Shown piece after piece: positions 2,024 through 46,503 of a stretch of DNA of 64,000 nucleotides (the stretch's first letter is position 1; each line of letters begins with the position of its first letter). The stretch is taken from NCBI GenBank assembly GCA_016861205.1, contig BOKX01000001.1, forward strand, positions 603,434 through 667,433, in the 5' to 3' direction. The translations under genes and the position numbers were made by a program. The notes below the pieces were generated by a model. It made no database searches and was not told the DNA's origin. It saw only the letters and a list, made by a program, of their open reading frames with translations. This DNA is from Patescibacteria group bacterium (GTDB lineage: Bacteria; Patescibacteriota; Microgenomatia; UBA1400; PJMF01).

Positions 2024-2668
2024 CTAAAAACTAACGTATACTGTCCGCTGAACAAGCTGGGTTTTGCCCCGACGATCCGTCGCCTCAATGGTGATTGTGG
2101 CTAAACCTTGTCTCGGAATAAAAACTTCTGTCTTAAAGCTACCGTCATTTTGCAAGCTAACTGGTTGCGAGTTGACCAGCACGTTAGCCTCTGGGGCCGT
2201 TTGTCCTTCCACCACCACCTGAGAAGAAACTAGGGCATTTTCTTGTGGTGAAATGAGCGCAACTGCTGGCGGTTGGTTCAGTTGATACCACTGCACGGTA
2301 ATGTAGCCAAACACCACACAAAAAATCAGCCCGACTACCACTACGGCTGCTGTGACTGGTGTCCAAATAAAACGACGCTGTAAGACTGGTTTAATAAACT
2401 CTCGTGGGACCAACTTGCCGCGAGCACTCTCTTTGTAGTCACGGCGCAACAAGGCCAGCAGCGGCTGATAATCGAAACCAAACAACCGGCTGTAGGTCTT
2501 GATGTAACCTTTAACAAAAGTGGCAGCCGGCAACTCGTCGAAGCGGTTCTCTTCTAGAGCTTGCAAGTACTCCAACCGAATCCGAGTTCGCTGTGATAAC
2601 TCAACCAAACTTAAGCGGTGATAGACTCGCTCTGCTTTGAGGATTTCACCGATAGTTCTGGTTTTCAT
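2024..2668 (-). CDS. RodZ-like protein (N-terminal XRE-type HTH, single TM, C-terminal periplasmic domain)
   Basis: N-terminal HTH (IGEILKAERVYHRLSLVELSQRTRIRLEYLQALEENRF), a central TM segment (TAAVVVVGLIFCVVFGYI) and a C-terminal beta-rich domain, which is the RodZ architecture. Confidence 0.55.
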   Translation of the reverse strand: MKTRTIGEILKAERVYHRLSLVELSQRTRIRLEYLQALEENRFDELPAATFVKGYIKTYSRLFGFDYQPLLALLRRDYKESARGKLVPREFIKPVLQRRFIWTPVTAAVVVVGLIFCVVFGYITVQWYQLNQPPAVALISPQENALVSSQVVVEGQTAPEANVLVNSQPVSLQNDGSFKTEVFIPRQGLATITIEATDRRGKTQLVQRTVYVSF

Positions 2669-2673
2669 GGTGA

Positions 2674-3105
2674 CTAAATTAACTTCTCCTTAACCAAACG
2701 AGCAATCATGGCCCCATCAGCTTGGTTGCCAACTTTCGCTTTGACAGCTTGCATAACGGGTCCCATTGCTTTCGGTTCAGTGGCAGCAATTACCTCATCG
2801 ATCATGCTACTCAGCTCAGCTTCTGATAACTGAGCTGGCAAGTAACTCTGCAGTATTGCCACCTTTTGTTCTTCTTCAGCTACAATATCAGCTCGGCCAC
2901 CTTTCTCAAACTCGGTGATTGCATCTTTCATTTGTTTGATTTGTTTGGCAACCAATTTTTGAATACCGGCATCGTCCGTTTCACCATTATCAATTTCCCA
3001 ATTTTTGATTTCTGACATCATGAAGCGAATCGTGTTCAACTTCATTGAGTTTCGATCGCGCATAGCTTGTTTCATGTCATCCATGAGTTGTTGTTTTAAT
3101 GGCAT
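2674..3105 (-). CDS. GatB/YqeY domain protein
   Basis: MPLKQQLMDDMKQAMRDRN...EKGGRADIVAEEEQKVAILQSYLP is the characteristic YqeY N-terminus. I place the start at the internal Met (cat at 3103-3105); the track ORF extends to 3171. Confidence 0.65.
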   Translation of the reverse strand: MPLKQQLMDDMKQAMRDRNSMKLNTIRFMMSEIKNWEIDNGETDDAGIQKLVAKQIKQMKDAITEFEKGGRADIVAEEEQKVAILQSYLPAQLSEAELSSMIDEVIAATEPKAMGPVMQAVKAKVGNQADGAMIARLVKEKLI

Positions 3106-3292
3106 AGGGTCGTCTTTAGCTCGTTTGCCGCAGTCTAAAAAGGCCTGTCGCAAACGAGCTAAAATCCTCAATTTATTAATAACTACTATTATCCACTCTG
3201 GTGGGAACTGTCACATAATTGTATCACCAAGCTGATGGGTCTCGAATGGTAGTTATGGTCAGCCTAGATCACGTGTGATGTGGGCAACAAAA

Positions 3293-3318
3293 AACCCCCC
3301 GCTTGCGGCGGGGGGTTA
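3293..3318 (-). terminator. Rho-independent terminator downstream of the DsbA-like gene
   Basis: GC-rich 8-bp stem (ccccccgc / gcgggggg) with a short loop. On the minus strand it is followed by a TTTTTTG tract, directly after the stop of the 3337..4152 gene. Confidence 0.55.
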
Positions 3319-3336
3319 CAGTTACACTACCGGAGC

Positions 3337-4152
3337 TTACTTGACGTATTTGTCGAGAGCTACTTTGACTTGATCAAATGGTAAGGCACCTGGAATGAGT
3401 TCAGCTTGATCACCAACTAATATGATCGTGCCAGGAGTACCGTTGATACCGGCGGCTGTTCCGCCGTCCATCTGAGCTTTAACCTTGGCAGCCATCTCAC
3501 CACTATCCAGACACTTCTGGAAGGTGTCCATGTTTACTCCCACAGCTTGGGCCGCTGAAGTAATCGTTTCAGGTGTGATACGACCACCTAACTTATTATT
3601 CTCTTCAAACATTTTGTCACCATATGCCCAGAAGCCGTCGTTGCCCTTTTGCTTGGCCACACACTCAGCTGCTTCGGCTGCCTTTTGAGCGTTGGGATGG
3701 AATGAAAGTGGGAAGTGTCGATACACCCAACGGACCTTGTCCCCATACTCTTTCATGACTTGTTGCATGGTGGGGTGGAATTGAGCACAGAATGGACACT
3801 CAAAGTCAGAGTACTCAATCAAGGTAATCTCTGCATTCTTGTTACCTCGGACTCGATCTTCGTTGGTCACTTTGGGAGCTTTTTTGAGCGTCTCAGGAGT
3901 TGGACCTTCTGGAGCAGCTGCGGCTCCAGCACCAGCCCCAGCACCGGCTGCGCCAGTCCCAGCTGTTGGGAAACCACCAGCTTTGAGGAAGCGATTTTCA
4001 CTCCACAGTGAGCCGGCATAGAAGCCACCCAAAAAGAACAAAATCGCTAAAAAGAAAACGACGAAGTTAGCGTTGATAAAGTTCACAAAACTAGCCAATG
4101 AATACATCGATTCTGATGACCGATACTCACTGACGACTGGTTTAACTGCCAT
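3337..4152 (-). CDS. DsbA-family thiol:disulfide oxidoreductase (membrane-anchored, Ala/Gly-rich linker)
   Basis: CPFC active-site motif (FECPFCAQFHP), thioredoxin-fold context, N-terminal TM helix and a GAGAGAGAAAAP linker. Confidence 0.7.
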   Translation of the reverse strand: MAVKPVVSEYRSSESMYSLASFVNFINANFVVFFLAILFFLGGFYAGSLWSENRFLKAGGFPTAGTGAAGAGAGAGAAAAPEGPTPETLKKAPKVTNEDRVRGNKNAEITLIEYSDFECPFCAQFHPTMQQVMKEYGDKVRWVYRHFPLSFHPNAQKAAEAAECVAKQKGNDGFWAYGDKMFEENNKLGGRITPETITSAAQAVGVNMDTFQKCLDSGEMAAKVKAQMDGGTAAGINGTPGTIILVGDQAELIPGALPFDQVKVALDKYVK

Positions 4153-4278
4153 GCTGCTCCTTGCTGAGTACTAAGTAGTGATACCCTGATGGTTCGCCTA
4201 TCTTGCCTGAGTTAAACTTAAAAAACAAGCGGGGATTTTGTAAGGTGCACTCGGTATAATCCTGAAAAGACGCTGAAA

Positions 4279-5055
4279 TTGCCACGTTTTATGACACCAA
4301 ATACACCACGCCAACTGTCACCCTATGAACGAAATCAATTAGTAAGAAATGGGATTGATCCTGCCACTATTGATCAGTATGGCGACCGACCAGTGGAGTA
4401 CATTACTGGCCGAGTCGAGTTTGCGGGTCATGAGTTTGAGGTGACACCTGATGTGCTCATTCCTCGGATTGAGACCGAAGAGTTGGTTGCGTTCGTCACA
4501 ACCGAGACCACTCACTTTCCTCAACCCCTACGACTGGTGGACATCGGGACAGGCAGTGGAGCCTTGGGTTTGAGTGTGGCAGCCTGGCTGGATCGACAGT
4601 CTTGGACTTTTGAGCTTGATCTCGTCGATGTTTCATCCGCTGCTTTGACCGTAGCGAAACGAAATGCCACCCAGCTTGGACTTCCGGTCGAGCAGTTACA
4701 CTGGCATCAAAGTGATTTGCTGACAGCGGTGTCACCTGATCGCACCTACCATGTAGTAATGGCAAACCTGCCGTATATTCCTACCAGTCGAGTTGCTCAG
4801 CTCGACTCTTCAGTCAAAGACTTTGAACCTATCTTGGCACTCGATGGTGGCCCCACTGGAAGTGAAGTTATTCAGCGACTACTGTCACAGTTGCCGCCAT
4901 ATTTAGCCCAGCAGCATGTTGTTTGGCTTGAGATTGATCACACGCACGAACTACCACATTTGATCGGGGATTTGCAGGGTTGGCAGGGTCAAATTGTCAG
5001 TGATAGCATGGGTCGAAGTCGATTTGCTCGACTAACGTATCAGCTGCCTGCCTAG
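4279..5055 (+). CDS. prmC: Release factor glutamine N5-methyltransferase PrmC/HemK
   Basis: SAM-binding motif VDIGTGSGALG and the catalytic NPPY-type motif (MANLPYIP). Confidence 0.75.
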   Translation: MPRFMTPNTPRQLSPYERNQLVRNGIDPATIDQYGDRPVEYITGRVEFAGHEFEVTPDVLIPRIETEELVAFVTTETTHFPQPLRLVDIGTGSGALGLSVAAWLDRQSWTFELDLVDVSSAALTVAKRNATQLGLPVEQLHWHQSDLLTAVSPDRTYHVVMANLPYIPTSRVAQLDSSVKDFEPILALDGGPTGSEVIQRLLSQLPPYLAQQHVVWLEIDHTHELPHLIGDLQGWQGQIVSDSMGRSRFARLTYQLPA

Positions 5056-5068
5056 CAAGCTGTAAACC

Positions 5069-6268
5069 ATGGTCATTGCCAAAGATAGCCTTCCCAAAGC
5101 TGTCACACTTTCACCCCACGACTACGAGACGCTCCTTTTTATTGGTCAACTTCAGGACAAAAAAAGATCACTGAAACTAAAAAAACCCATCTCACGGAAC
5201 CTAACTTCTCACGAGCTACAAGTGATCTATCGAACTGCTCAACTCAAGTTGTTGTACTTGGTGATGCAGGCTGAAGATTGCTGGCAAAGTGTGGCTGAGG
5301 TTCAACGACCTAAGCACCCCGATTACTATGTGCACTATCACCATCGTGATCGCAAGACACTAGCCTTTTTAATTCAGCGAGCTATCTCTGATTGGCCAAG
5401 TCTGCCCGTTGAAGACCGCTACATGTTCATAGCCAGATGTTTACAAGATATGGCTGCCACTTCAATAAACACCGCCACCAGTCCTATGTTGAGTGGCGGC
5501 GGGCGAGGCGTCGAAAACCCACGTCACCGACTGAAATGGTGGTCACAAGCAGTAACGGCCACCGAGCGCAATCATCTCATCAAAAGCCTTGCGTTGGCTC
5601 AGAATCAAGGTTCTCAAACTCTTTTTTCGCCAGAAGCTGGCGATCGGATGTTTTTGGACACGTCAGCAAGTTTGAAAATCGCCATCGGTGAAGATGGCCT
5701 TAGCTCTCTGCTACCTATTGAAGAACAGTTCCCGCAGGCTCTCTACAGCTCAGCCACATTTGATCAGATTATACTCAGAGCTGACGGCACAGTTTTGATG
5801 GTCAAAAACTGTTATGAACCTCGGCTGACCCCAGAAGCTGTCTCGAACGAACCAAGTTATGTGCAGTTAGTGGTCCAAATGGCATTGGCCGAACGCTTGG
5901 CACAGAAACTGTATCAGCAAGCCTTTCCCAAACCGACCAGTACGCCACCTTACTTTTTAGTTGACCCTCTTGAGCTCGCATATCAACCAGCAGTCAAAGT
6001 CATCGAACGTTACCCGCTTATTCTCGACACCAAACGGAAAATTTGGGAACGCGATGTTACTCCCAATCCCCAGCAGTTTGCCGATGGTGTCAATCAGCTT
6101 TACCAGCTGAGCGCGTATGCCAGCAACCCGTATCTCTTGGCATTACTGAAAGATCGGCGAAAGAATGCCCACATCCCCACAGAGTTCTGGCCGCGCTACC
6201 AAGTTCCCCAATGGGAGGATCGGAACCAGTACTTCCGACAACTTGGTTTGCCAAACTTCATCGAGTAG
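5069..6268 (+). CDS. Hypothetical protein (399 aa, no recognisable domain)
   Basis: Long ORF with protein-like composition, co-directional and tightly spaced between prmC and the COG0523 gene. No motif I recognise. Confidence 0.4.
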   Translation: MVIAKDSLPKAVTLSPHDYETLLFIGQLQDKKRSLKLKKPISRNLTSHELQVIYRTAQLKLLYLVMQAEDCWQSVAEVQRPKHPDYYVHYHHRDRKTLAFLIQRAISDWPSLPVEDRYMFIARCLQDMAATSINTATSPMLSGGGRGVENPRHRLKWWSQAVTATERNHLIKSLALAQNQGSQTLFSPEAGDRMFLDTSASLKIAIGEDGLSSLLPIEEQFPQALYSSATFDQIILRADGTVLMVKNCYEPRLTPEAVSNEPSYVQLVVQMALAERLAQKLYQQAFPKPTSTPPYFLVDPLELAYQPAVKVIERYPLILDTKRKIWERDVTPNPQQFADGVNQLYQLSAYASNPYLLALLKDRRKNAHIPTEFWPRYQVPQWEDRNQYFRQLGLPNFIE

Positions 6269-6285
6269 TTTACAGTTAGGCTGGT

Positions 6286-7233
6286 ATGACTGCGACTTCC
6301 ACCCCCGTGACCATCGTGACCGGCTTTTTAGGGTCAGGCAAAACGACTATCATTCTGCATCTTGTCGAGCAACTTCAATCTCGCGGTGAACAGGTGGTGT
6401 ACATCAAAAACGAACTCGGTAATCAAGATATCGACACTCAAATCATTAAAACTACTCGTATAGAGACTCGTGAACTACTCAACGGATGTATATGTTGTAC
6501 GCTGGTGGGTCCCTTTACCCAAGCCATCGATGAGCTCATCGCGCGGTTCCATCCCGACCGGGTCATCATTGAGGCGAGTGGGGCAGCTGATCCTTCAGCG
6601 ATTGCCCTCACTGTTTCAAGCCACCCAGGGCTGCGCCGTGATGGGGTTGTCAGTATCATCGACGTTGCCAACTTTGAAGGCTACCAAGACATTAGCACAA
6701 CTGCCCAACATCAAGCCCAGTTCACCGATTTAATCGTTTTTAACAAAGTTGAGTTGGTTGATGAGGCTCGAAAAATGGCGGTGGTTGGTTATGTGCGAGA
6801 ACTAAATCAATATGCCCCAATCGTTGAGGCTGTGGCGGGTAAACTGGATCCGGAATTGGTCTTTGGCTGTCACACCACTGAACTTGAGGCCCTCCTTCAG
6901 ACACACCCCGATCATCACCAGCACCTGACAATGGATCAACTTACGAGTTGTAGTTTTGATCTTGCTACTCCACCTGACAAACAGAGCTTGGAACAAGCTC
7001 TGTCACACCTGCCAAAACAGGTGTTCCGAATTAAAGGTATTATCACTGATACAACCGGCCAAACTTGGCTAGTCAACAAAGTTGGCTCGCGGCTTGACCT
7101 ACAATCAATAACCCCACCAAGCGGTGCTCCGCTTGGTCGGTTGGTTTGTTTGGGTTTTGATGTAACCAACTTGGCACCAGAAATCGAGCACCAATGGCGT
7201 GCAGCCGGACTGGATATCAAGCTACTTCGCTAA
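6286..7233 (+). CDS. COG0523 (CobW/ZigA/YeiR-type) G3E-family GTPase, putative zinc metallochaperone
   Basis: Walker A GFLGSGKTT, metal-binding GCICCTL (CxCC) motif, and a C-terminal CobW_C-like region. Confidence 0.7.
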   Translation: MTATSTPVTIVTGFLGSGKTTIILHLVEQLQSRGEQVVYIKNELGNQDIDTQIIKTTRIETRELLNGCICCTLVGPFTQAIDELIARFHPDRVIIEASGAADPSAIALTVSSHPGLRRDGVVSIIDVANFEGYQDISTTAQHQAQFTDLIVFNKVELVDEARKMAVVGYVRELNQYAPIVEAVAGKLDPELVFGCHTTELEALLQTHPDHHQHLTMDQLTSCSFDLATPPDKQSLEQALSHLPKQVFRIKGIITDTTGQTWLVNKVGSRLDLQSITPPSGAPLGRLVCLGFDVTNLAPEIEHQWRAAGLDIKLLR

Positions 7234-7242
7234 CGAACTCCA

Positions 7243-8307
7243 TCAACTGAGCCGCTTTAGTTGCCAAGCTACCAGATCATAAAACAGCTCGCGCCACTCC
7301 TCAGTGAGCGGCAATCGAGTTATCAACTCGTGAGCACTGGTTTCCAGCTCAAACAACTCTTGATCCACTTTGGCTTTCGCCCCAGAGTCAATGACGAGCT
7401 GACGAACAAAGGTCAAATCACCTTCACCCAAGTCGCTCTTCCCAACCAAAGTCATCACTCGTTGCCAATCTTCATGGGTAACTAACTGCCGCGCATACCA
7501 AAAGTACAGGGTTTGTTTACCCTCTCTGAGGTCTGAACCCGCTGGCTTGCCAATCTGTTCACTGCTACCAAACAGTCCTAGCTCATCATCCTTAATCTGA
7601 AACAGTACGCCGAGTGCCTCGCCAAGTTTTTCCAAGTCGCGTACCACCGCCGAGGTTTGCTGACTGATCAAGGCTGCTGACACGAGTGGCAACACAAAAC
7701 TGTAGCGAGCAGTCTTTTCAATGAAAATGGCTCGAATCTCGTCGTCGCTCAGTTGACGAGTATCGTAACCGGCAATGGTGTCTTTCATCTCACCAAATGC
7801 GGTAAACATCATCTCTTGCGACATACGTTTGATGACGGCGCGAGTAGTGCTTCCGTCAAGCCGGGTGTCGGCAAGCAACTGATTCGCTAAGAAAAAACAA
7901 ATATCCCCCACACACAAAGCTAAGCTTTGGCCAACATGTGGTGCTTGTGGCCACTGGTTTTGTTCAGCCTGTCGTGTGTAGTAGGCAAAAACTGAAGGTT
8001 GGCCGCGGCGAACTTCGTCTCGGTCAATAATGTCATCATGAATGAGAAGCGCATTGTTCAACAACTCCCAGGCTGCACCTAACTTGATCCCATCAGATAC
8101 ATCACCGCCAAAAGCTTCTGTAGCCATCGCGGTCAGACACCCTCTCAGCAGCTTGCCCGCTGCCACTCGCTCGTGCAAAACACGCCATACTTCTGTCGGC
8201 ACCTGTCCCGTGGCTGGTGCAGCCACTTCAGCTTCACGCAACGTTTGCGTTAAAGACTCTGTCAGTAACTCACGATACTGAGTCAGATACTTCATCAGGT
8301 TACTCAT
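7243..8307 (-). CDS. Polyprenyl (isoprenyl diphosphate) synthase family protein
   Basis: First aspartate-rich motif LIHDDIIDRDEVRRGQPS and second FQIKDDELGLFG with KPAGSDLREGKQT. Confidence 0.8.
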   Translation of the reverse strand: MSNLMKYLTQYRELLTESLTQTLREAEVAAPATGQVPTEVWRVLHERVAAGKLLRGCLTAMATEAFGGDVSDGIKLGAAWELLNNALLIHDDIIDRDEVRRGQPSVFAYYTRQAEQNQWPQAPHVGQSLALCVGDICFFLANQLLADTRLDGSTTRAVIKRMSQEMMFTAFGEMKDTIAGYDTRQLSDDEIRAIFIEKTARYSFVLPLVSAALISQQTSAVVRDLEKLGEALGVLFQIKDDELGLFGSSEQIGKPAGSDLREGKQTLYFWYARQLVTHEDWQRVMTLVGKSDLGEGDLTFVRQLVIDSGAKAKVDQELFELETSAHELITRLPLTEEWRELFYDLVAWQLKRLS

Positions 8308-8316
8308 GGCTGTATT

Positions 8317-19766: not shown

Positions 19767-20771
19767 CTACAACAAACTTAATACCGCATACTCTTCCGGC
19801 AGCAACCCGGCAGGCACTTGTTTCGTAGCTTTATGCACCGCCGCAAAATGGGGGACCAGGAGGTGTTTTTCGTAGGTGCTAAAAATTTTCGGATGAATGT
19901 AGTACTTACGACACACCGCTGTAGTATTTCCCAAGTGTTCAGCTACCGACTCCACGGTTTGGAGTAGTACTTTATCTACAGGTTGTTCCTCGGTCGGCTC
20001 ACCAAACCGATACAACGTATCGCCAGCTAAAGTCGTTCCACCCCAGGTGCGAAAGTCCTTGGCCGTCAGAGACTCACCCGTTATCTCTTTGAGATAGGCG
20101 TTCACATCAGCTGAGTCAACTTTGTGACGTTTACCCTCATCATCTACATACTGAAATAATTGATAGCCCGGCAACTCGATGCACTGCTTGATAGTGGTGG
20201 CAACCCGAGGATGAGTAATGTCTAGCTCGTGATACACATGGCTCTTACCTTTGAAACTAAACCGCACTGTGTTGCCCTCCACGTCGACGTGTTTGTTTCG
20301 CATAGTAGTTAAACCATAGGATTGATTCTCTTTGGCGTAGGTGGCGTTTCCCACCCGGATAAATGTGTGCTCGAGTAGCCACACGATCGTGGCTAAAACC
20401 CGCTCATAACTTAATGTGTGCTGACGCATGTGGCCACTAACTGTTTCTCGTAGAGTAGGCAGCACCTCGCCAAACTTCTGGAGTGAATCAAATTTATGAC
20501 GCTGATTGTACTCAACCCAATCAGGGTGATAGATATACTGTTTACGACCTTTGCCATCTGTACCAATGGCTTGAATATGCCCATGAGGATCTGAGCTGAT
20601 TTTGACATCAACCCAAGCAGGTGGAATCACTAATTTTTTGACTCGATCTTGGTCTCGTTCTGAAACAGGTTTGCCTAACCGATTGAGAACCACGAAGTGG
20701 TCTCCTCGCTTCTGTCGCCGCCAACTCAGCGTGACATCTGACACATACCGAATGCCCCGAGGTTTGTTCAT
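19767..20771 (-). CDS. DNA topoisomerase IB (bacterial/poxvirus-type)
   Basis: About 335 aa with TopIB catalytic-region motifs: SYGLTTMRNKHV, KDFRTWGGT, AEHLGNTTAVCRKYYIHP (Tyr-containing C-terminal motif). Confidence 0.7.
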   Translation of the reverse strand: MNKPRGIRYVSDVTLSWRRQKRGDHFVVLNRLGKPVSERDQDRVKKLVIPPAWVDVKISSDPHGHIQAIGTDGKGRKQYIYHPDWVEYNQRHKFDSLQKFGEVLPTLRETVSGHMRQHTLSYERVLATIVWLLEHTFIRVGNATYAKENQSYGLTTMRNKHVDVEGNTVRFSFKGKSHVYHELDITHPRVATTIKQCIELPGYQLFQYVDDEGKRHKVDSADVNAYLKEITGESLTAKDFRTWGGTTLAGDTLYRFGEPTEEQPVDKVLLQTVESVAEHLGNTTAVCRKYYIHPKIFSTYEKHLLVPHFAAVHKATKQVPAGLLPEEYAVLSLL

Positions 20772-25888: not shown

Positions 25889-26308
25889 ATGTTGACAGAT
25901 CAAGAACTAACCCCGTTAATCACTGCTCCCAAAGTTATTGCGGTCGTAGGTCTATCAGACAAACCAGAGCGCCCCAGCTACCAAGTAGCCAGCTACCTGA
26001 TAGATCAAGGCTTCACGATTCTTCCCGTTAATCCCACTATCAGTGAAGTTTTTGGCCTAAGTGCGTACCCTTCTCTTGAGACAATACCTGACACGATTCA
26101 TATTGATATTGTGGATATTTTTCGGCAGTCCGAGGCGGTCCTCCCTATTGTGAAAACAGTCATTGAGTCACATCAAAAGCCACTGGTTTGGATGCAAGAA
26201 GGTGTCATCTCTCCCGAGGCACAGAAGCTAGCTGAGATGAACGGACTCAAAGTTATTATGGATCAGTGCTTAATGAAAACCCATCGGCGACTTGGCCTGA
26301 CACGCTAA
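25889..26308 (+). CDS. CoA-binding domain protein (YccU-like)
   Basis: KVIAVVGLSDKPERPSYQVASYLIDQGFTILPVNP is the CoA_binding_2 signature. Confidence 0.7.
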   Translation: MLTDQELTPLITAPKVIAVVGLSDKPERPSYQVASYLIDQGFTILPVNPTISEVFGLSAYPSLETIPDTIHIDIVDIFRQSEAVLPIVKTVIESHQKPLVWMQEGVISPEAQKLAEMNGLKVIMDQCLMKTHRRLGLTR

Positions 26309-26392
26309 CCACCTGCATCAAGACACGCTGCACTTTACCGCTCATTTAGTCTGGTACAATACCCCTCACTTACTATCATTTTTAAGGTAAAT

Positions 26393-26923
26393 ATGACCGG
26401 TACTGAACTGACTCGTGAACAAGCTCGCCAAAACTTTCTTGCCTATCTGCAACGACCTAACTCGGACTTAACTGCTAACACCATGCGGGCATGCTTAAAA
26501 GCCGTCGAAACTGCCTGCATAGATGAGCTCGGTAATGATGAAGCCGCTCAGGCTTACATCACTACTATTCTCAGAACACTGGCCACTTCTGCCGCTGAAG
26601 AAGTTAATCGCCGGGTCGAAATTAAAGACCCTAGTTTATCAGAAACCGAAGCTCAAGAAACATTAGGCATCTTAATGCTGTTTGCTCCTGACCTGGCTCG
26701 ACAGTTACTGGCCAAAGCTGCCCTTACCGATCCTGCGGCTGCAGCTGAGTTACCAGTCCCTGATCCACAAACCATGACTTCAGGCAAAGGTAGTCAGTCG
26801 CCTGTTACCACTCGTCGTGAACCAACTTCCTCTGACCCAACCGGGGCACTCGACCCTGTAGCCCCAGGCAGCTCACGTCGGCGTGGTCGACCACCAGGTT
26901 CTAAGAATAAGAAACGTAAGTAG
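26393..26923 (+). CDS. Hypothetical protein with C-terminal AT-hook-like motif (RRRGRPPGSKNKKRK)
   Basis: Helical N-terminal ~110 aa, Pro/Ser/Thr-rich linker, and a basic C-terminus containing the GRP core of an AT-hook. Confidence 0.4.
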   Translation: MTGTELTREQARQNFLAYLQRPNSDLTANTMRACLKAVETACIDELGNDEAAQAYITTILRTLATSAAEEVNRRVEIKDPSLSETEAQETLGILMLFAPDLARQLLAKAALTDPAAAAELPVPDPQTMTSGKGSQSPVTTRREPTSSDPTGALDPVAPGSSRRRGRPPGSKNKKRK

Positions 26924-26952
26924 TCGAACTCTAGCTTCCTAATATTAATCAC

Positions 26953-28803
26953 ATGCCCAAATCAAACTTAGAGTCTTCACCGTTGTATCGGCGTGAATTC
27001 AGTGTCCGTATTCCTGTCCGAATCTACCAGGAAATTCTCAACGAGTTGCCAACCGTTCAGTGGCCTTTTACCGACGAACAGTGGGAACAGTTTGCCGTGG
27101 CAGCGGCTAAAAGTTATGACGATAACTCGTTCCTTGAAAGTTTGGTAGCTTTGTATCGCATCTCAAATGCACATGGACGCTCTTTTGATATCAGCGACTT
27201 TGAATATGGAAGTGTCGATAAACAGCAACCGCTCGACTTTGTTTTCTCTGATGAATTCTGGAACGATTTTTGGGAAATGTCCCTAAAAGGCGGTGATGCT
27301 ACCCAGGTCGGTGCAATTTGTTCCAAAGTAGAACCGGGCGGTTTTCGTTACAAAGGGCTCCTCACCCATCGATCACTAATTCGGTGTTTGCGGGGCTCAA
27401 AACTGCTACGACGAGCACATGTCAGTACCGAAATTGTCATGAAAGTCATGGAACCAATTGGTTTGCCGCTGGCTGGCGAAGTTGTCGATATCCCACGCTA
27501 TAAACAATTTTTGATTGATCAAGCTATGAGTACAGCCGTGCCAGAAGTCATCAACGCCGATCATGAACTTCGACCTGTGGCAAAGAGTGATATTCCTGCA
27601 CTCATTAAAGACCTTGATGAAACTACCTTTTTTCTGATGTTGCGCGGCATGACTACTAATATTCGCATGAAAGATTTTTCGCTAGCCAGCACCAAAGACG
27701 AGTTCTTAGCCCTGTTCCGGCACGTCGCCACCATCGTTAATTTTACGCAATTGAGAACTAGCCAGCGATATTCCGAATTTCAGCCATATTTTTTTAATCC
27801 AGATGACGAAGATGATGTGGTCTCATACTTCACCACGCACATTCCTCAGGTTTTTGGTTGTCACTTAGCTGTGTTATCAGATCTTGGTTTGTTACATCAG
27901 TACCTCAACCCTTCCAACATGATTGCCGATGGCGGCATTGCTGACTTGGATAGTATGAAAGGCCCTGCCCTTGGCCTTGGAGATCAACCCAACACCAATG
28001 TGGATATCTTGCTTGAGACCATGAATGCCACTCACTGTTATCAAGACCTGCTCTATGTTTTAGCCCAAAAAGGCTTCATTGAAGTCGAACTGACCTCCAA
28101 GTGGCCACGCCAGAATGATAGCGATGGAAACCCCATCCTTTCTTCAGATGAAATTGACACAGCCCGAGCCATTATGTACTTGTCATACCTCACCAACTGT
28201 CACACTACAGATTTGGAAAGCTTTTGTTTTATGCTGCGTGTGGAACCACTCCTGCTGGCTGAGATGATGGCCCTGATGGAAATAAATCCTGAAATGGCTG
28301 ATCAAATTTGGACAAATGTCAGCCAGAATATTCCCTGGTTTGAGCCACTTGCTATCACCGCAGAAGACTTGCTTAAAGAGTTTGCGCAAACCAAAGTCTC
28401 ACAAGCTGACAGACCAAGCGACTTCGAAACAATTGTTGGTCAGATGATGATTGAAATCATCCGCACCCGGTCTGGCGCGTTGTTCACTGAGTACCAGGAG
28501 TACGCCATTAAACAAATTAGCTTAGAAGTGATTATGAAGTACGGTGACGAACTCAGTGAAATTACTCAAAAATTTGGTGAAGACGTGGCCGATGTGATTC
28601 AGAATTTTATGACCGCTCAAGAAGCTGAGCGAATTATGCAACCGCTGCTCATGAAAATGGCCTTTGTCCTGCGGCCACCGGCTGAATTACTAGCACAGTT
28701 ACCAGAGGGAAACCCGCTTCGCGTTCTCCAGGAACTGCTGCCTGCTGTCAATCAGCCCCCCACATCACCAGCTATCAGCAGTAGTGCTGAAAATAGTTCT
28801 TAG
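26953..28803 (+). CDS. Large hypothetical protein (616 aa, no recognisable domain)
   Basis: Long uninterrupted ORF with protein-like composition. Co-directional, 30 nt downstream of the AT-hook gene. Confidence 0.45.
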   Translation: MPKSNLESSPLYRREFSVRIPVRIYQEILNELPTVQWPFTDEQWEQFAVAAAKSYDDNSFLESLVALYRISNAHGRSFDISDFEYGSVDKQQPLDFVFSDEFWNDFWEMSLKGGDATQVGAICSKVEPGGFRYKGLLTHRSLIRCLRGSKLLRRAHVSTEIVMKVMEPIGLPLAGEVVDIPRYKQFLIDQAMSTAVPEVINADHELRPVAKSDIPALIKDLDETTFFLMLRGMTTNIRMKDFSLASTKDEFLALFRHVATIVNFTQLRTSQRYSEFQPYFFNPDDEDDVVSYFTTHIPQVFGCHLAVLSDLGLLHQYLNPSNMIADGGIADLDSMKGPALGLGDQPNTNVDILLETMNATHCYQDLLYVLAQKGFIEVELTSKWPRQNDSDGNPILSSDEIDTARAIMYLSYLTNCHTTDLESFCFMLRVEPLLLAEMMALMEINPEMADQIWTNVSQNIPWFEPLAITAEDLLKEFAQTKVSQADRPSDFETIVGQMMIEIIRTRSGALFTEYQEYAIKQISLEVIMKYGDELSEITQKFGEDVADVIQNFMTAQEAERIMQPLLMKMAFVLRPPAELLAQLPEGNPLRVLQELLPAVNQPPTSPAISSSAENSS

Positions 28804-42630: not shown

Positions 42631-43722
42631 TTAAGTTCGAGAACCCAACTGCCTACTCACCTCATCTACTGCTCGGGACATCTCTTCGATCTTGGCAGCG
42701 ATATTACCGACATTTAAACTTAGTCCGTTGATCGCCCGACTAATCGTATAAGCATCTTGAGCAGTTGAATATGTGTTGGCACTAATTTCTCTTGTGTTCC
42801 GTGCAATCTCTGTCGTACTTTTATCTATATTCCTTAAGCGTTCAATTTTTTCAATCTCTAAATTGGCTAAGGAGATAAGTGCTTCAACTCTTTGCTTCAG
42901 GTCTGTTAAAACTAAAAAGCCATAGTCTTGAATTGGCAAATCTTGTCCCAGAGCTTTTAATTTTGTTTTTACTAAATCAAATCCAGGAGTTTTGACTTGA
43001 GATCGCCAATTTTCTAATTGATGAGGATAGAAAGGCTCTGGAAGATCAGCTAAATACTGTTCTACCAAACAGCTAAGCAAGTCTTCCCTACGCTCGAAGA
43101 AGGGACGACCATAACTTATCATTGAACATGAATACTGGGGGACACCTTTTTTAGAGAATCCAAAATCTACACACAATTTATAGGGCTCATCAATTCTTTT
43201 TCTTTCTGACTTACCCTTATTGATTGGCAACCGGTGATCATAAAATATCGTAGAAATTGCCGCAGCATTTTCTAACCAGCGGCCAACTATACCATCAGTT
43301 ACATCATCTGCTGACGTAATTCCTTTTTTGACTTGCTCTAACATGTATTCACGGACTTTCTTCTCCCAATCCGAATGTGAGGGGTAAGGACGACGAAGCC
43401 AAGAAAGTATCCCATAGGGCAGATCAGTTGCCCCCGAACTAACACTAAAAACACTCCCCCATCTCTGCTGGCAAGCACCATTTATCTTATCAGTTAGTGC
43501 CTTAACGGCTTCATTTAAAGTCTCATCCTGTAAAAATCTCTCGGCATCTTGAAATCTGTTATCTGTCTCGAGCCGCGCTCGAAGTAGCTGATCTACTTCA
43601 GGGTATATGGCGTCTACTATGGTCTCTACTTCTTTCGCTTTGGCGGCGGCTGGATCCTTTATCATTCTCTGGGCATCAACTAAATCTTGAAAACTAGGTC
43701 CTTTTTTCGATTCGTGTGACAT
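42631..43722 (-). CDS. Hypothetical protein, island gene 3 (coiled-coil C-terminus)
   Basis: Low-GC ORF. Start placed at MSHESKK (cat 43720-43722) with a GAAAGGGA Shine-Dalgarno. The C-terminal ~90 aa is heptad-like (LANLEIEKIERLRNIDKSTTEIARNTREISANTYSTAQDAYTISRAINGLSLNVGNIAAKIEEMSRAVDEVSRQL). No known domain. Confidence 0.45.
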   Translation of the reverse strand: MSHESKKGPSFQDLVDAQRMIKDPAAAKAKEVETIVDAIYPEVDQLLRARLETDNRFQDAERFLQDETLNEAVKALTDKINGACQQRWGSVFSVSSGATDLPYGILSWLRRPYPSHSDWEKKVREYMLEQVKKGITSADDVTDGIVGRWLENAAAISTIFYDHRLPINKGKSERKRIDEPYKLCVDFGFSKKGVPQYSCSMISYGRPFFERREDLLSCLVEQYLADLPEPFYPHQLENWRSQVKTPGFDLVKTKLKALGQDLPIQDYGFLVLTDLKQRVEALISLANLEIEKIERLRNIDKSTTEIARNTREISANTYSTAQDAYTISRAINGLSLNVGNIAAKIEEMSRAVDEVSRQLGSRT

Positions 43723-43934
43723 AGTCCCTTTCAAAAGCGCATCGCTATTAAGAAACAATATTTTTTTAGTGCAAAATAAGTAGTGGCATTATATCACTGT
43801 GATATAGTTAGCAGTCTGCGACCGGCACAACTGCCATGTTCTTCGTCAGAACGGATATATTCATGAAACCATAACTTAGTGGTACTCAATTCAATTTGGC
43901 TCCCCGCCGTGGCAGAAATCAGGAACTGCTTTTT

Positions 43935-44954
43935 TTAAGAAAATTGTATATGGATATCTTTTAAAAGCTGACAGTTGCAACTCAAAGACTGACCACTACA
44001 CCTTGGGCATTGCTCTACATCACAACCAAAACAATGGTACTGCCCAAGAACAGCAAAACAGTCATGACATGAATTTTTTTCAGTTGATTCAATCCAGGTT
44101 ATTTTTCCCCCATCAACTTTCATTTCATCTGGTTCATCAAATTTCTCGTATCCATATTTTATTCTTCTAAACCTCTTTCCATGTAAAATAATTGTTTTTT
44201 CTTTTTGTGATTTATCAAACTCTTCATAGTATTGAAAATATGCGTAAAGTTTCATGGAAACATTGTTGAGCTCTTCAGTTGGGAAACCTGATTCTAACCT
44301 ATGCAACCCTTTGGTTCTGTTGCTATGAATTTTTTCAAAAGCTTTTCTAATTTCCCCATCCATACCCACACCTAATTTGTAAACTTCGTTGAGTAGAATA
44401 CCAAAGCGACCACTTTTCTCACCCGGCTTATGTCCATTTTTCTCAAGTAGAAATCTCGTCAGAAAACTATCGGCATCTTTTATATAATCCCAATTACTTA
44501 TTATTCCCATATCCCACCTTCTGAAAATAACTTCATACTCATGAGAAAAGGGGTCAGTAAAGGCACCTGGAATATAGTTGAATTGATTCAATTTTCCTAA
44601 AACATGCTTTTTTAAATACTTACTATATGGGTTTTCGAATCTGTGCTCAAGAAGTTGCTGATAGAGTGGAATGATTGCTTGATCCAAGACAGCTTCTCTA
44701 TTTTTCTTATCCAGAGCACATGAGTAGTAGTAAAGTCCTCTATTGAGAATCATCTCTTGCAACAGAGCATCAATAGAACCAGTTTGTCCATCAACAATAA
44801 TGTTGAAGCGCCCTCTGCCCAGATATTCAAAAGTAAATTTTGTATTTCTTGAATACCTCTTGCCCACTTGATTCAAAAATTCTAGAAAATTAATAGCGTG
44901 TGTGTGATATTTTGCTTTTACATTAATTATTTGATCGTATCCTGCCATATTCAC
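43935..44954 (-). CDS. Hypothetical protein, island gene 2 (C-terminal Cys cluster, zinc-ribbon-like)
   Basis: Very AT-rich ORF (~32% GC in sampled stretches). C-terminus CHDCFAVLGQYHCFGCDVEQCPRCSGQSLSCNC carries 10 Cys in 33 aa. No known domain. Confidence 0.45.
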   Translation of the reverse strand: MNMAGYDQIINVKAKYHTHAINFLEFLNQVGKRYSRNTKFTFEYLGRGRFNIIVDGQTGSIDALLQEMILNRGLYYYSCALDKKNREAVLDQAIIPLYQQLLEHRFENPYSKYLKKHVLGKLNQFNYIPGAFTDPFSHEYEVIFRRWDMGIISNWDYIKDADSFLTRFLLEKNGHKPGEKSGRFGILLNEVYKLGVGMDGEIRKAFEKIHSNRTKGLHRLESGFPTEELNNVSMKLYAYFQYYEEFDKSQKEKTIILHGKRFRRIKYGYEKFDEPDEMKVDGGKITWIESTEKNSCHDCFAVLGQYHCFGCDVEQCPRCSGQSLSCNCQLLKDIHIQFS

Positions 44955-45068
44955 AGAATTATATTGTAGATTTAGTCCAACAAAAGGTTCAAGCGTCTAA
45001 GACAGGGTAAGCTTTTTACTTGAGGGGGAAACGTTGCTCCATGTATGGAACTTTATCCGATCGCTGAA

Positions 45069-46145
45069 TTAAGCTGGCATTATTTTGACAAAACCCATCG
45101 CAATCAGCTCCTTGAGTAAATCCATAGCTTTTGCTTCCAATGCTCCTCCTGGAAAGTTGATGTAACCAAGGTCACTAAAGTCGCTCGGCAAATTCACTCC
45201 GTCTTCTTTAAAAATTATTACCTTTTCACCATAAAGCACGCTTGCTGCTCCCAATTCAAACACGACATTTGCATTTGGTTGAACAATATTTGAATCACCA
45301 TCAGTTGCTTCATCTTTTGACGAAAAAATAAAAATTGCTGAGCCACATTCGTGCATTGTATCTCTAACTTTTTGAGAAACAGGTCTGCCAGAGTGTGCTT
45401 CATGAATAGCAACTTTATGAGGAATGCCAAATTGATTTAATATTTTTTCTAGCTGAGTAAGCGGTTGCCTGTCCTTACCATGAGCTATGAAAATAGGCTT
45501 AAGGATATTTGATTTTGATTCTTCCTCTGGATTAATAACTTCTTGAGCTAAAATTTCTTGTTGATTCTCCTCAATTTCTAACTCTGTATTTTCTCCTAAA
45601 TCGGGGTCACTTTCCTCGCTGCCATTCAACATTACGTACAAAGAACCACTTATGTCGCGTATAATTCCTGTGTATTTTCCATTTTCAAGCAAGAGAGAAA
45701 CTGCTTCTTCACTAAATTCTCGAGATACATTGAATGTGACTTCTAATGTGTTTTTAAAAAAATCACCTTGAGGAAACTTGTTGTTTTGATAGTGACTATA
45801 GACTTTACTGAACAGTTCTGGCGTTAGGACAGCTTGTTTTTTTGCTTCATTTCTTTGTGCTTCAGAGAGTGGCTGAGTTATTTTCTTTCCTAAATCGGTG
45901 AGCTCAATGTTTTCAGCTTTTTCTGTTCCAAGTGTCAAACCATATTTGAAAGAGCAACTTAATAAGTCTCGAAAATTTGTACTCAAGGGTTTTATTCCTA
46001 AAGCATTTGCCAATAACAAGCGATTCATTGGCTTCCCAGCATTTTGATTTTGTATAGTCTCTGCAATTTTCAAAGACTCTTGTAAGGAATAAAGAGGAAA
46101 AGGTCTAACCCTTCTAGTTTTCTTCTGTTTATCTGCTGTCTCCAT
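45069..46145 (-). CDS. Island gene 1: two-domain protein with C-terminal TIR-like (COG4271/PF10137-type) nucleotide-binding domain
   Basis: The C-terminal ~130 aa (PIFIAHGKDRQPL...CGSAIFIFSSKDEATDGDS...NANVVFELGAASVLYGEKVIIFKEDGVNLPSDFSDLGYINF) follows the TIR-like consensus as I recall it (VFIVHG..., AIVLLTPDD, NVIFELGYF, VELPSDLxG). The N-terminal ~210 aa is unassigned. Confidence 0.5.
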   Translation of the reverse strand: METADKQKKTRRVRPFPLYSLQESLKIAETIQNQNAGKPMNRLLLANALGIKPLSTNFRDLLSCSFKYGLTLGTEKAENIELTDLGKKITQPLSEAQRNEAKKQAVLTPELFSKVYSHYQNNKFPQGDFFKNTLEVTFNVSREFSEEAVSLLLENGKYTGIIRDISGSLYVMLNGSEESDPDLGENTELEIEENQQEILAQEVINPEEESKSNILKPIFIAHGKDRQPLTQLEKILNQFGIPHKVAIHEAHSGRPVSQKVRDTMHECGSAIFIFSSKDEATDGDSNIVQPNANVVFELGAASVLYGEKVIIFKEDGVNLPSDFSDLGYINFPGGALEAKAMDLLKELIAMGFVKIMPA

Positions 46146-46191
46146 ACTCTACCTTTCTTGGGCAGAAATTTGGTCCGGATAAGCAACAGGT

Positions 46192-46266
46192 GGCTCCCCG
46201 ACTAGGACTCGAACCTAGAACCTTTTCGTTAACAGCGAATTGCTCTGCCATTGAGCTATCGGGGAA
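46192..46266 (-). tRNA. tRNA-Asn (anticodon GUU), CCA encoded
   Basis: Hand-folded cloverleaf: acceptor TCCCCGA/TCGGGGA, D-arm GCTC-AATGGCA-GAGC, anticodon arm ATTCG-CTGTTAA-CGAAA (U33, GUU, A37), T-arm CTAGG-TTCGAGT-CCTAG, discriminator G, CCA; 75 nt. TACAAT -10-like hexamer about 12 nt upstream. Confidence 0.85.
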
Positions 46267-46503
46267 TGTTAACTCGGGTATTGTAGCAAACCTGCAGCCA
46301 CCTTGCCAGCCCTGCTGGCCACTGATTTGAGCCAAACTCTGCTCCGCCACGCTCCGCAGATACCCTACTTTAACTTCAAATAATTCTACATTTGACATAT
46401 TTCTTACACATTGTGTCAGCCGCGTTCAAGGATTAAACTCCACAATTATAAGAAAATATTCTATTACTATCTGCCGCAGGTCGGCTAGAAACCTGCAGAA
46501 CCT

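Follow-up and report, generated by a model that had tools for sequence, protein, structure and literature searches.

What two adjacent genes of a Patescibacteria group bacterium do together, one encoding a small protein with a DNA-binding-like tail and the other a large protein in which no familiar motif is seen, is the question raised by this locus. The genes lie in a stretch of 64,000 nucleotides (nt) of contig BOKX01000001.1 (hereafter, the window), and a sequence-only reading had described them as an orphan pair, i.e., an AT-hook-like protein of 176 amino acids (aa) followed by a 616-aa protein without recognizable domain. The listing of open reading frames (ORFs) agrees with that reading on the two same-strand ORFs, which are separated by a gap of 29 nt:

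26393..26923, plus strand: small partner gene (ORF, 176 aa)
26953..28803, plus strand: large gene (ORF, 616 aa) for a SelO-like kinase-fold protein, predicted to consist of a kinase-like core (residues ~10-400) and a helical C-terminal region (~400-600)

Our analysis assigns the 616-aa protein, whose predicted fold is SelO/YdiU-like, to a separate family without curated model that belongs to the SelO branch of the kinase-like superfamily. We assign a rough probability of 0.55 to the reading in which the two genes form a module, comprising a SelO-type nucleoside monophosphate (NMP) transferase and a dedicated partner that would dock on the enzyme via a short motif and be tethered to DNA by its AT-hook.

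The description of the large protein as an orphan did not hold, as an exhaustive HMMER search of 1.84 billion cluster representatives returned 321 proteins at E ≤ 1e-3 and 51 at E ≤ 1e-30. These relatives share query residues ~10-355 at about 20-30% identity, and their lengths range from 240 to 1247 aa. Routine searches, for which the claim of no recognizable domain stands, returned far less: Pfam, NCBIfam, PHROGs and PADLOC gave no meaningful match to the 616-aa protein, no PDB sequence matched it, and the family profile found only low-complexity or helical noise among PDB sequences. A word-indexed search with the large protein recovered only two near-identical relatives, and the same two were recovered with a 150-sequence profile. 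Matches to CspB_prodomain and Asp23 were rejected as chance, being short and far below the cutoffs. A scan of GTDB genomes with the large protein was empty because the search patterns were too lineage-specific, and a metagenome scan with a family sub-alignment yielded 8 loci. Only one member carries a name in the databases, RJR14801.1 ("hypothetical protein [Candidatus Microgenomates bacterium]"), and the family has so far been met only in contigs of the candidate phyla radiation (CPR) type and in unlabelled metagenomic contigs, with no members found on viral contigs.

Alignments of 57, 106 and 150 members revealed near-invariant positions throughout the shared region, namely, H74-G-R76-S77, D100, K112-G113, G135, R144, S149, R153, T159-E160 and P168, followed by R231, R238, D241, N263, P298, H309, H315, N322, G327, D331-L-D333-S334 and G337. 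The C-terminal halves are highly variable in length, with a recurring F...Y...G spacing in their consensus that suggests helical repeats.

The fold became apparent once the family alignment was deep enough. AlphaFold run on a 3-sequence alignment reached a predicted local distance difference test (pLDDT) score of 38; with 106 sequences the pLDDT was 89 and the predicted template modeling score (pTM) 0.86, residues 101-380 falling in blocks of pLDDT 94-98. All nine Foldseek matches of this model at E ≤ 1e-3 are SelO/YdiU entries, and SelO scores at least 8 Z units above every kinase. More specifically, the model displays a protein-kinase-like fold with SelO-specific insertions, and the longer alignment obtained with SelO indicates that the similarity takes in SelO-specific elements outside the common kinase core. 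No significant fold match was found among viral structures, coronavirus replicase fragments reaching E values of 0.02-0.15. A relation of the 616-aa protein to a known enzyme family, which would count against its description as a protein of no recognizable kind, is not recovered by the Pfam models and is indicated by the predicted fold, in favor of SelO.

The conserved residues can be compared with those of SelO from Pseudomonas syringae, in which ATP is bound in a flipped orientation, Lys113, Glu136, Arg176 and Arg183 hold its gamma-phosphate, and Asn253 and Asp262 hold Mg2+, Asp262 also serving as base (PMC8097203). Our SelO profile was built from 10 sequences, i.e., E. coli SelO and genes carried on plasmids or chromids in bacteria and archaea, and its invariants are K107, E130, R170, R177, N247 and D256 in E. 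coli numbering (P. syringae minus 6). Three segments of the large gene correspond to this set:

27286..27291, plus strand: K112-G113, proposed beta3 lysine (equivalent to P. syringae SelO K113), 99% conserved
27643..27666, plus strand: R231...R238, Arg-x6-Arg pair (proposed equivalent of SelO R176/R183), 97-100% conserved
27895..27951, plus strand: catalytic-loop/metal block H315...N322...D331-L-D333, 93-99% conserved (SelO H240/N247/D256 in E. coli, N253/D262 in P. syringae)

Comparing the family with SelO, hhalign produced a sole local alignment, which sets H315/N322/D331 on H240/N247/D256 (E 0.003-0.016). Under relaxed settings, R231/R170, R238/R177, R144/R129, S149/S134 and T159/T144 (query/E. 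coli SelO) were paired colinearly. The register of the Asn, the Asp and both Arg residues is thus backed by hhalign, and both families have the same R-x6-R and N-x8-D spacing. In the model, a beta-strand spanning residues 108-112 terminates at K112-G113, as happens at K-G in SelO, and K112, R231, R238, N322 and D331, the residues corresponding to the flipped-ATP set, are 97-100% conserved. As in SelO, the canonical catalytic Asp of the HRD motif is absent (H315-Q-Y in the query, H-x-F in the family consensus). Unlike in SelO, there is no C-terminal tail with cysteine or selenocysteine, the query ending in ...SSSAENSS and the SelO alignment in SCSS. Judged from these conserved residues, the large-protein family is very probably catalytically active, and SelO-type nucleotide binding is plausible.

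The small protein divides into the following parts, of which the first two are defined by composition and the third by the alignment of partners:

residues 1-110: Ala/Glu/Thr-rich, probably helical
residues 111-160: Pro/Ser/Thr-rich linker
26771..26794, plus strand: conserved partner motif TMTSGKGS (residues 127-134)
26873..26920, plus strand: AT-hook-like tail SRRRGRPPGSKNKKRK with RGRP core (residues 161-176)

The C-terminal end of the protein, SSRRRGRPPGSKNKKRK, is as the sequence-only reading had described it, with 9 Lys/Arg among the 16 tail residues and a G-R-P core between basic flanks, as in an AT-hook. An RGRP core with at least 4 Lys/Arg within ±6 flanking residues occurs 4 times in 487,721 residues (long ORFs of all fetched DNA), each time in a partner ORF of this family. 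A hook is found at the same C-terminal position in partners of enzymes that are less than 30% identical (KKPRGRPRKNP in lineage L083, RRRPGRPKKSK in L103), and this recurrence, together with the restriction of RGRP plus basic flanks to partner ORFs, argues that the core is not a chance occurrence. The tail is also kept in both close orthologs, which lie on two near-identical Logan assembly contigs (L001 and L002): the core and most of the basic residues are unchanged, apart from one R-to-S change in P0004. The Pfam AT_hook model (PF02178) does not report the window protein and stays below threshold on the L083 partner (14.8 bits versus a cutoff of 17.4); being only 13 residues long, this model has little power. 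In its R-G-R-P core, its Lys/Arg flanks and its position in a Pro/Ser/Thr-rich, probably disordered segment, the tail resembles HMGA-type AT-hooks, and we take RGRPPGSKNK to be a close likeness of the second hook of HMGA1 (RGRPKGSKNK). Unlike HMGA, this bacterial protein has one hook only, at its very C-terminal end, and an unrelated helical N-terminal domain. The AT-hook would be expected to bind AT-rich DNA.

Searches with the small protein gave no meaningful match in Pfam, NCBIfam, PHROGs or PADLOC, and the word-indexed search found only two near-identical relatives. Sigma-factor and JetA matches were dismissed as chance, being short and far below the cutoffs (JetA, E=0.008, 13 bits).

Genomic context was recovered for 14 independent lineages of the large-protein family. 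Twelve of these have, directly upstream of the enzyme gene and in the same orientation, a small gene without Pfam domain (117-246 aa) at a distance of 8-64 nt. The co-occurrence of the pair extends beyond the window, with two lineages as exceptions. The other neighbors differ between lineages (yidC/jag next to dnaA, mraZ-rsmH, spoU, OTCase, HicB/PIN). The partners align colinearly, with an N-terminal helical region that starts with "P..E.A...F...L" and includes a helix "Y..L..LA..A", then a Pro-rich linker and a short motif of the pattern PPM[S/T]x[P/G/A]KG. This motif takes the form TMTSGKGS in the window, EMSQPKGG in L083, EMSQPKE in L103, DMSQAKGG in L084, PPMDTAKG in L109 and PPMTSPKG in L110. 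The corresponding regular expression, derived from the same sequences on which it was counted, matches 12 partner ORFs versus 8 in the rest of 925,499 residues (six-frame ORFs), and has no match in 99,250 residues of the enzyme family.

Beyond the motif, the partners diverge. Those of the window lineage, L083, L103 and L104 (KKTRGRRRKN) carry a basic tail of AT-hook type. L109 carries a helix-turn-helix (HTH) of XRE type, whose HTH_31 match exceeds the gathering score (E=1.6e-6); such an HTH is weakly detected in L110, as is a helix-hairpin-helix (HhH) resembling RpoA-CTD in L084 (E=0.088). In L085, L086, L087, L106 and L107 the partners end at or just after the motif and have no DNA-binding module. 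As three unrelated DNA-binding modules swap at the same position, DNA binding appears to be a selected function in the lineages that have them; as the partners of five lineages lack such a module, interaction with the enzyme would be the core function.

Several of these loci show features of their own. The L083 pair (2395-8310, in a Microgenomates metagenome-assembled genome [MAG]) lies between yidC and jag/khpB, in the origin-proximal cluster dnaA-rpmH-rnpA-yidD-yidC, and the L104 pair lies directly upstream of mraZ-rsmH. In L110 (852-4918), two tandem SelO-like paralogues of 630 and 734 aa overlap by ~30 nt and are preceded by a single HTH-bearing partner gene. The L084 partner (1192-1789) is split into overlapping ORFs of 79 and 133 aa, whose combined sequence matches full-length partners in the alignment; a frameshift or an assembly error is the probable cause.

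According to the module reading, the 616-aa enzyme would probably bind its nucleotide flipped and transfer adenosine or uridine monophosphate (AMP or UMP), not phosphate, to a protein side chain. The partner motif PPM[S/T]xxKG would probably dock at the enzyme, either as modification site or as inhibitory pseudo-substrate, and the C-terminal AT-hook would tether the partner to AT-rich DNA, such that NMPylation or sequestration of the partner would couple enzyme activity to DNA binding and gene expression. The NiRAN domain is itself SelO-like. Precedents exist, YdiU having been reported to UMPylate the DNA-binding regulator Fur (PMC9239237) and NiRAN to NMPylate the RNA-binding nsp9 (PMC8017715). 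A narrower version, a one-enzyme, one-substrate switch in which the adaptor is nucleotidylated at PPM[S/T]xxKG and its tail (AT-hook, HTH or HhH) thereby moves on or off chromatin, is a possibility that we put forward tentatively.

Several observations weigh against the module reading. None of the 57 scanned family members (57/57) has a Pfam match, including to the SelO and kinase models, even at E ≤ 10, and the hhalign probability for the family versus SelO is below 10% (E=0.016, 2.8% with the 10-sequence SelO profile). Relaxed hhalign did not pair K112 with the SelO lysine, so we infer their equivalence from the motif and the strand position. Opposite the alpha-C Glu that stabilizes the lysine in SelO (E136; E. 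coli E130), the query has C145 and the family no conserved residue, the invariant E160 lying after the helix; the Asp beside the metal-binding Asn in the NTDN of SelO is Gly or Ser in the family; and two residues conserved elsewhere in the family are missing from the query lineage, N304 being replaced by H and H309 by S. Regarding the partner, the enzymes of L088-90 and L091-92 have none within 2.7-5 kb, and neither a partner domain nor the motif was found fused to the enzyme in any enzyme member searched. Moreover, a leave-one-out partner profile ranks the 176-aa ORF first of 312 window ORFs at a nonsignificant E of 0.13. With this value, the case for homology between the window protein and the other partners is suggestive, being built on their position, their architecture and a weak similarity.

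The same gene pair can be read in other ways. It could be a toxin-antitoxin-like or defense module, in which an NMP-transferase toxin is held by a small protein acting as antitoxin and autorepressor, with the motif blocking the active site, like the inhibitory helix in Fic antitoxins, and the tail repressing the operon. The layout is that of hipBA, where a larger kinase-fold gene is preceded by, and tightly coupled to, a small gene for a DNA-binding protein, and the swapping of AT-hook, XRE HTH and HhH between lineages is typical of antitoxins; still, the partners of five lineages carry no DNA-binding module at all, and an obligatory antitoxin is hard to reconcile with the two lineages whose enzymes have neither a nearby partner nor an internal copy of the motif. 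Also in favor of such a module are the variable, non-syntenic locations of the copies, the L107 copy among HicB, PIN and DUF2283 genes, the tandem paralogues of L110 and the lack of a copy in ~21.7 kb around the ATP-binding cassette (ABC) exporter of Woesebacteria UBA5941 (L016), which has the most similar flanks found, in a different gene order. Set against this are the inconspicuous local GC content, the lack of copies on viral contigs and the placement of other copies in core regions (dnaA-rnpA-yidC and mraZ-rsmH). The large protein has no PADLOC match, and Pfam toxin-antitoxin domains are absent. HipBA and Fic/antitoxin modules such as VbhT/VbhA do combine a small upstream, often XRE-HTH-bearing partner with a kinase-fold or AMPylating enzyme, and a short partner motif could act as active-site inhibitor as in Fic systems. 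The present family differs from them in having no sequence or profile similarity, some partnerless enzymes and many partners without DNA-binding domain, and toxicity is hypothetical here. On balance, we consider a toxin-antitoxin-like module rather unlikely.

That the large protein is an inert pseudokinase scaffold, or a conventional ATP-dependent kinase of proteins or small molecules, and the small one an unrelated nucleoid-associated operon neighbor, we regard as quite improbable. The near-invariance of K112, R231, R238, N322, D331 and D333 across ~150 members at ~20-30% identity argues for catalysis and against an inert protein. We know of no counterpart of the R-x6-R pair in canonical kinases. 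The distance of SelO from every kinase in the fold comparison likewise speaks against a conventional kinase, as does the role of this pair in SelO, where it holds the gamma-phosphate of the flipped nucleotide (PMC8097203); and a partner present in 12/14 contexts with a conserved motif is unlikely to be an unrelated gene. A tagging system is a very remote alternative. The small protein, or its N-terminal part cleaved at the KG motif, would then be a Pup- or ubiquitin-like modifier whose C-terminus is adenylated by the enzyme, after the manner of the carboxylate-adenylating IucA/IucC and of SidJ. Some partners do end at the motif, and IucA/IucC appeared among the fold matches, but SelO is a much closer fold, the motif of the window protein is internal with 42 residues following it, the C-terminal residues of partners are not uniform, and no protease, ligase or deconjugase gene is linked.

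Relative to known systems, the family has no sequence-profile membership in SelO/YdiU (Pfam PF02696, UPF0061; PDB 6eac, 6k20, 6lna). SelO/YdiU is a protein adenylyltransferase and UMPylase, which modifies Ser, Thr, Tyr or His of its substrates. It differs from SelO by N-lobe insertions of ~10 aa and ~50 aa, by the additional invariants H74-G-R76-S, D100, E160, D241, N263 and D333-S, by a different C-terminal helical region of variable length, and by the dedicated upstream partner gene. With NiRAN, it would have in common a SelO-like kinase fold that NMPylates a small nucleic-acid-binding partner (PMC8017715). NiRAN, in contrast, is a polymerase domain whose target is the N-terminus of nsp9; the window enzyme is stand-alone, and the fold matches are insignificant.

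The position of the pair is as the sequence-only reading had given it, between a CoA_binding_2 gene (25889-26308) upstream and a convergent ABC exporter downstream, whose stop codon and that of the large gene overlap by 4 nt (28800-28803). The interpretation given in that reading is, overall, partly supported. One upstream element was read from the sequence:

26352..26360, plus strand: candidate extended -10-like element TGGTACAAT, 33 nt upstream of the ATG of the small gene

This element may serve as promoter for the two-gene operon, and it is absent from the output of a generic promoter scan. The promoter/terminator scan found site counts no higher than in shuffled sequence, and no terminator-like site between the 616-aa gene and the convergent exporter. 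GC content across the pair is 0.46-0.48, the same as in its surroundings. The pair occurs with the same synteny on the two Logan contigs, where identity to the window proteins amounts to 98% and 87% for the large one and to 95% and 88% for the small one. The exporter shares 70-77% identity with proteins from MAGs of Woesebacteria, Shapirobacteria, Wildermuthbacteria and further Patescibacteria, and the best matches of the neighboring DsbD-thioredoxin and DEAD-box genes are in Woesebacteria. A CPR bacterium of Microgenomatia type is the most likely source of the window on this evidence. Several GTDB MAGs with such an exporter (L003, L005, L007, L010, L012 and others) bear the NCBI labels "uncultured Gammaproteobacteria" or "Pseudomonadales", which are probably taxonomic errors, the other close matches being CPR MAGs.

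Elsewhere in the window, positions 43000-46300 have a GC content of 0.35-0.41 versus ~0.48 in the remainder and end at a tRNA-Asn gene (46191-46265, minus strand); this stretch may be an integrated island. By synteny with L002 only, 19767-20771 (minus strand) was assigned to a bacterial type IB topoisomerase (Top1B_N_bact and Topoisom_I), an enzyme uncommon in bacteria. Likewise by synteny with L002, 32002-36174 (minus strand) was assigned to a copper/heavy-metal cluster, containing an HMA chaperone, a DsbD_2-cupredoxin protein, a P-type ATPase and an HTH_5/YHS regulator.

From bacteria to humans, the atypical "pseudokinase" SelO is widely conserved. Full-text searches of the literature returned no description of SelO-like families in Patescibacteria or of AT-hooks in CPR bacteria, and the studies of SelO/YdiU that they found concern individual substrates such as Fur and SodA, none describing a dedicated partner. 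New, accordingly, are a sequence family of its own, which has the fold type and the active-site geometry of SelO, and its dedicated modular, often DNA-binding partner. Because the partner is linked and probably cognate and carries a candidate motif, an enzyme-substrate or enzyme-inhibitor relation is directly testable with the two proteins. The fold was missed by Pfam, NCBIfam, word-indexed search and AlphaFold on a shallow alignment, and was revealed only by exhaustive HMMER search and a model built on a deep alignment.

CPR bacteria have small genomes rich in unannotated genes, and our analysis provides a fold and a plausible chemistry for the "hypothetical proteins" of at least 321 clusters, which come from CPR bacteria and unlabelled metagenomes. 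It also documents bacterial AT-hooks as modules interchangeable with HTH and HhH. If the partner were indeed switched by nucleotidylation, the pair would control gene expression or the nucleoid in organisms with hardly any conventional regulators.

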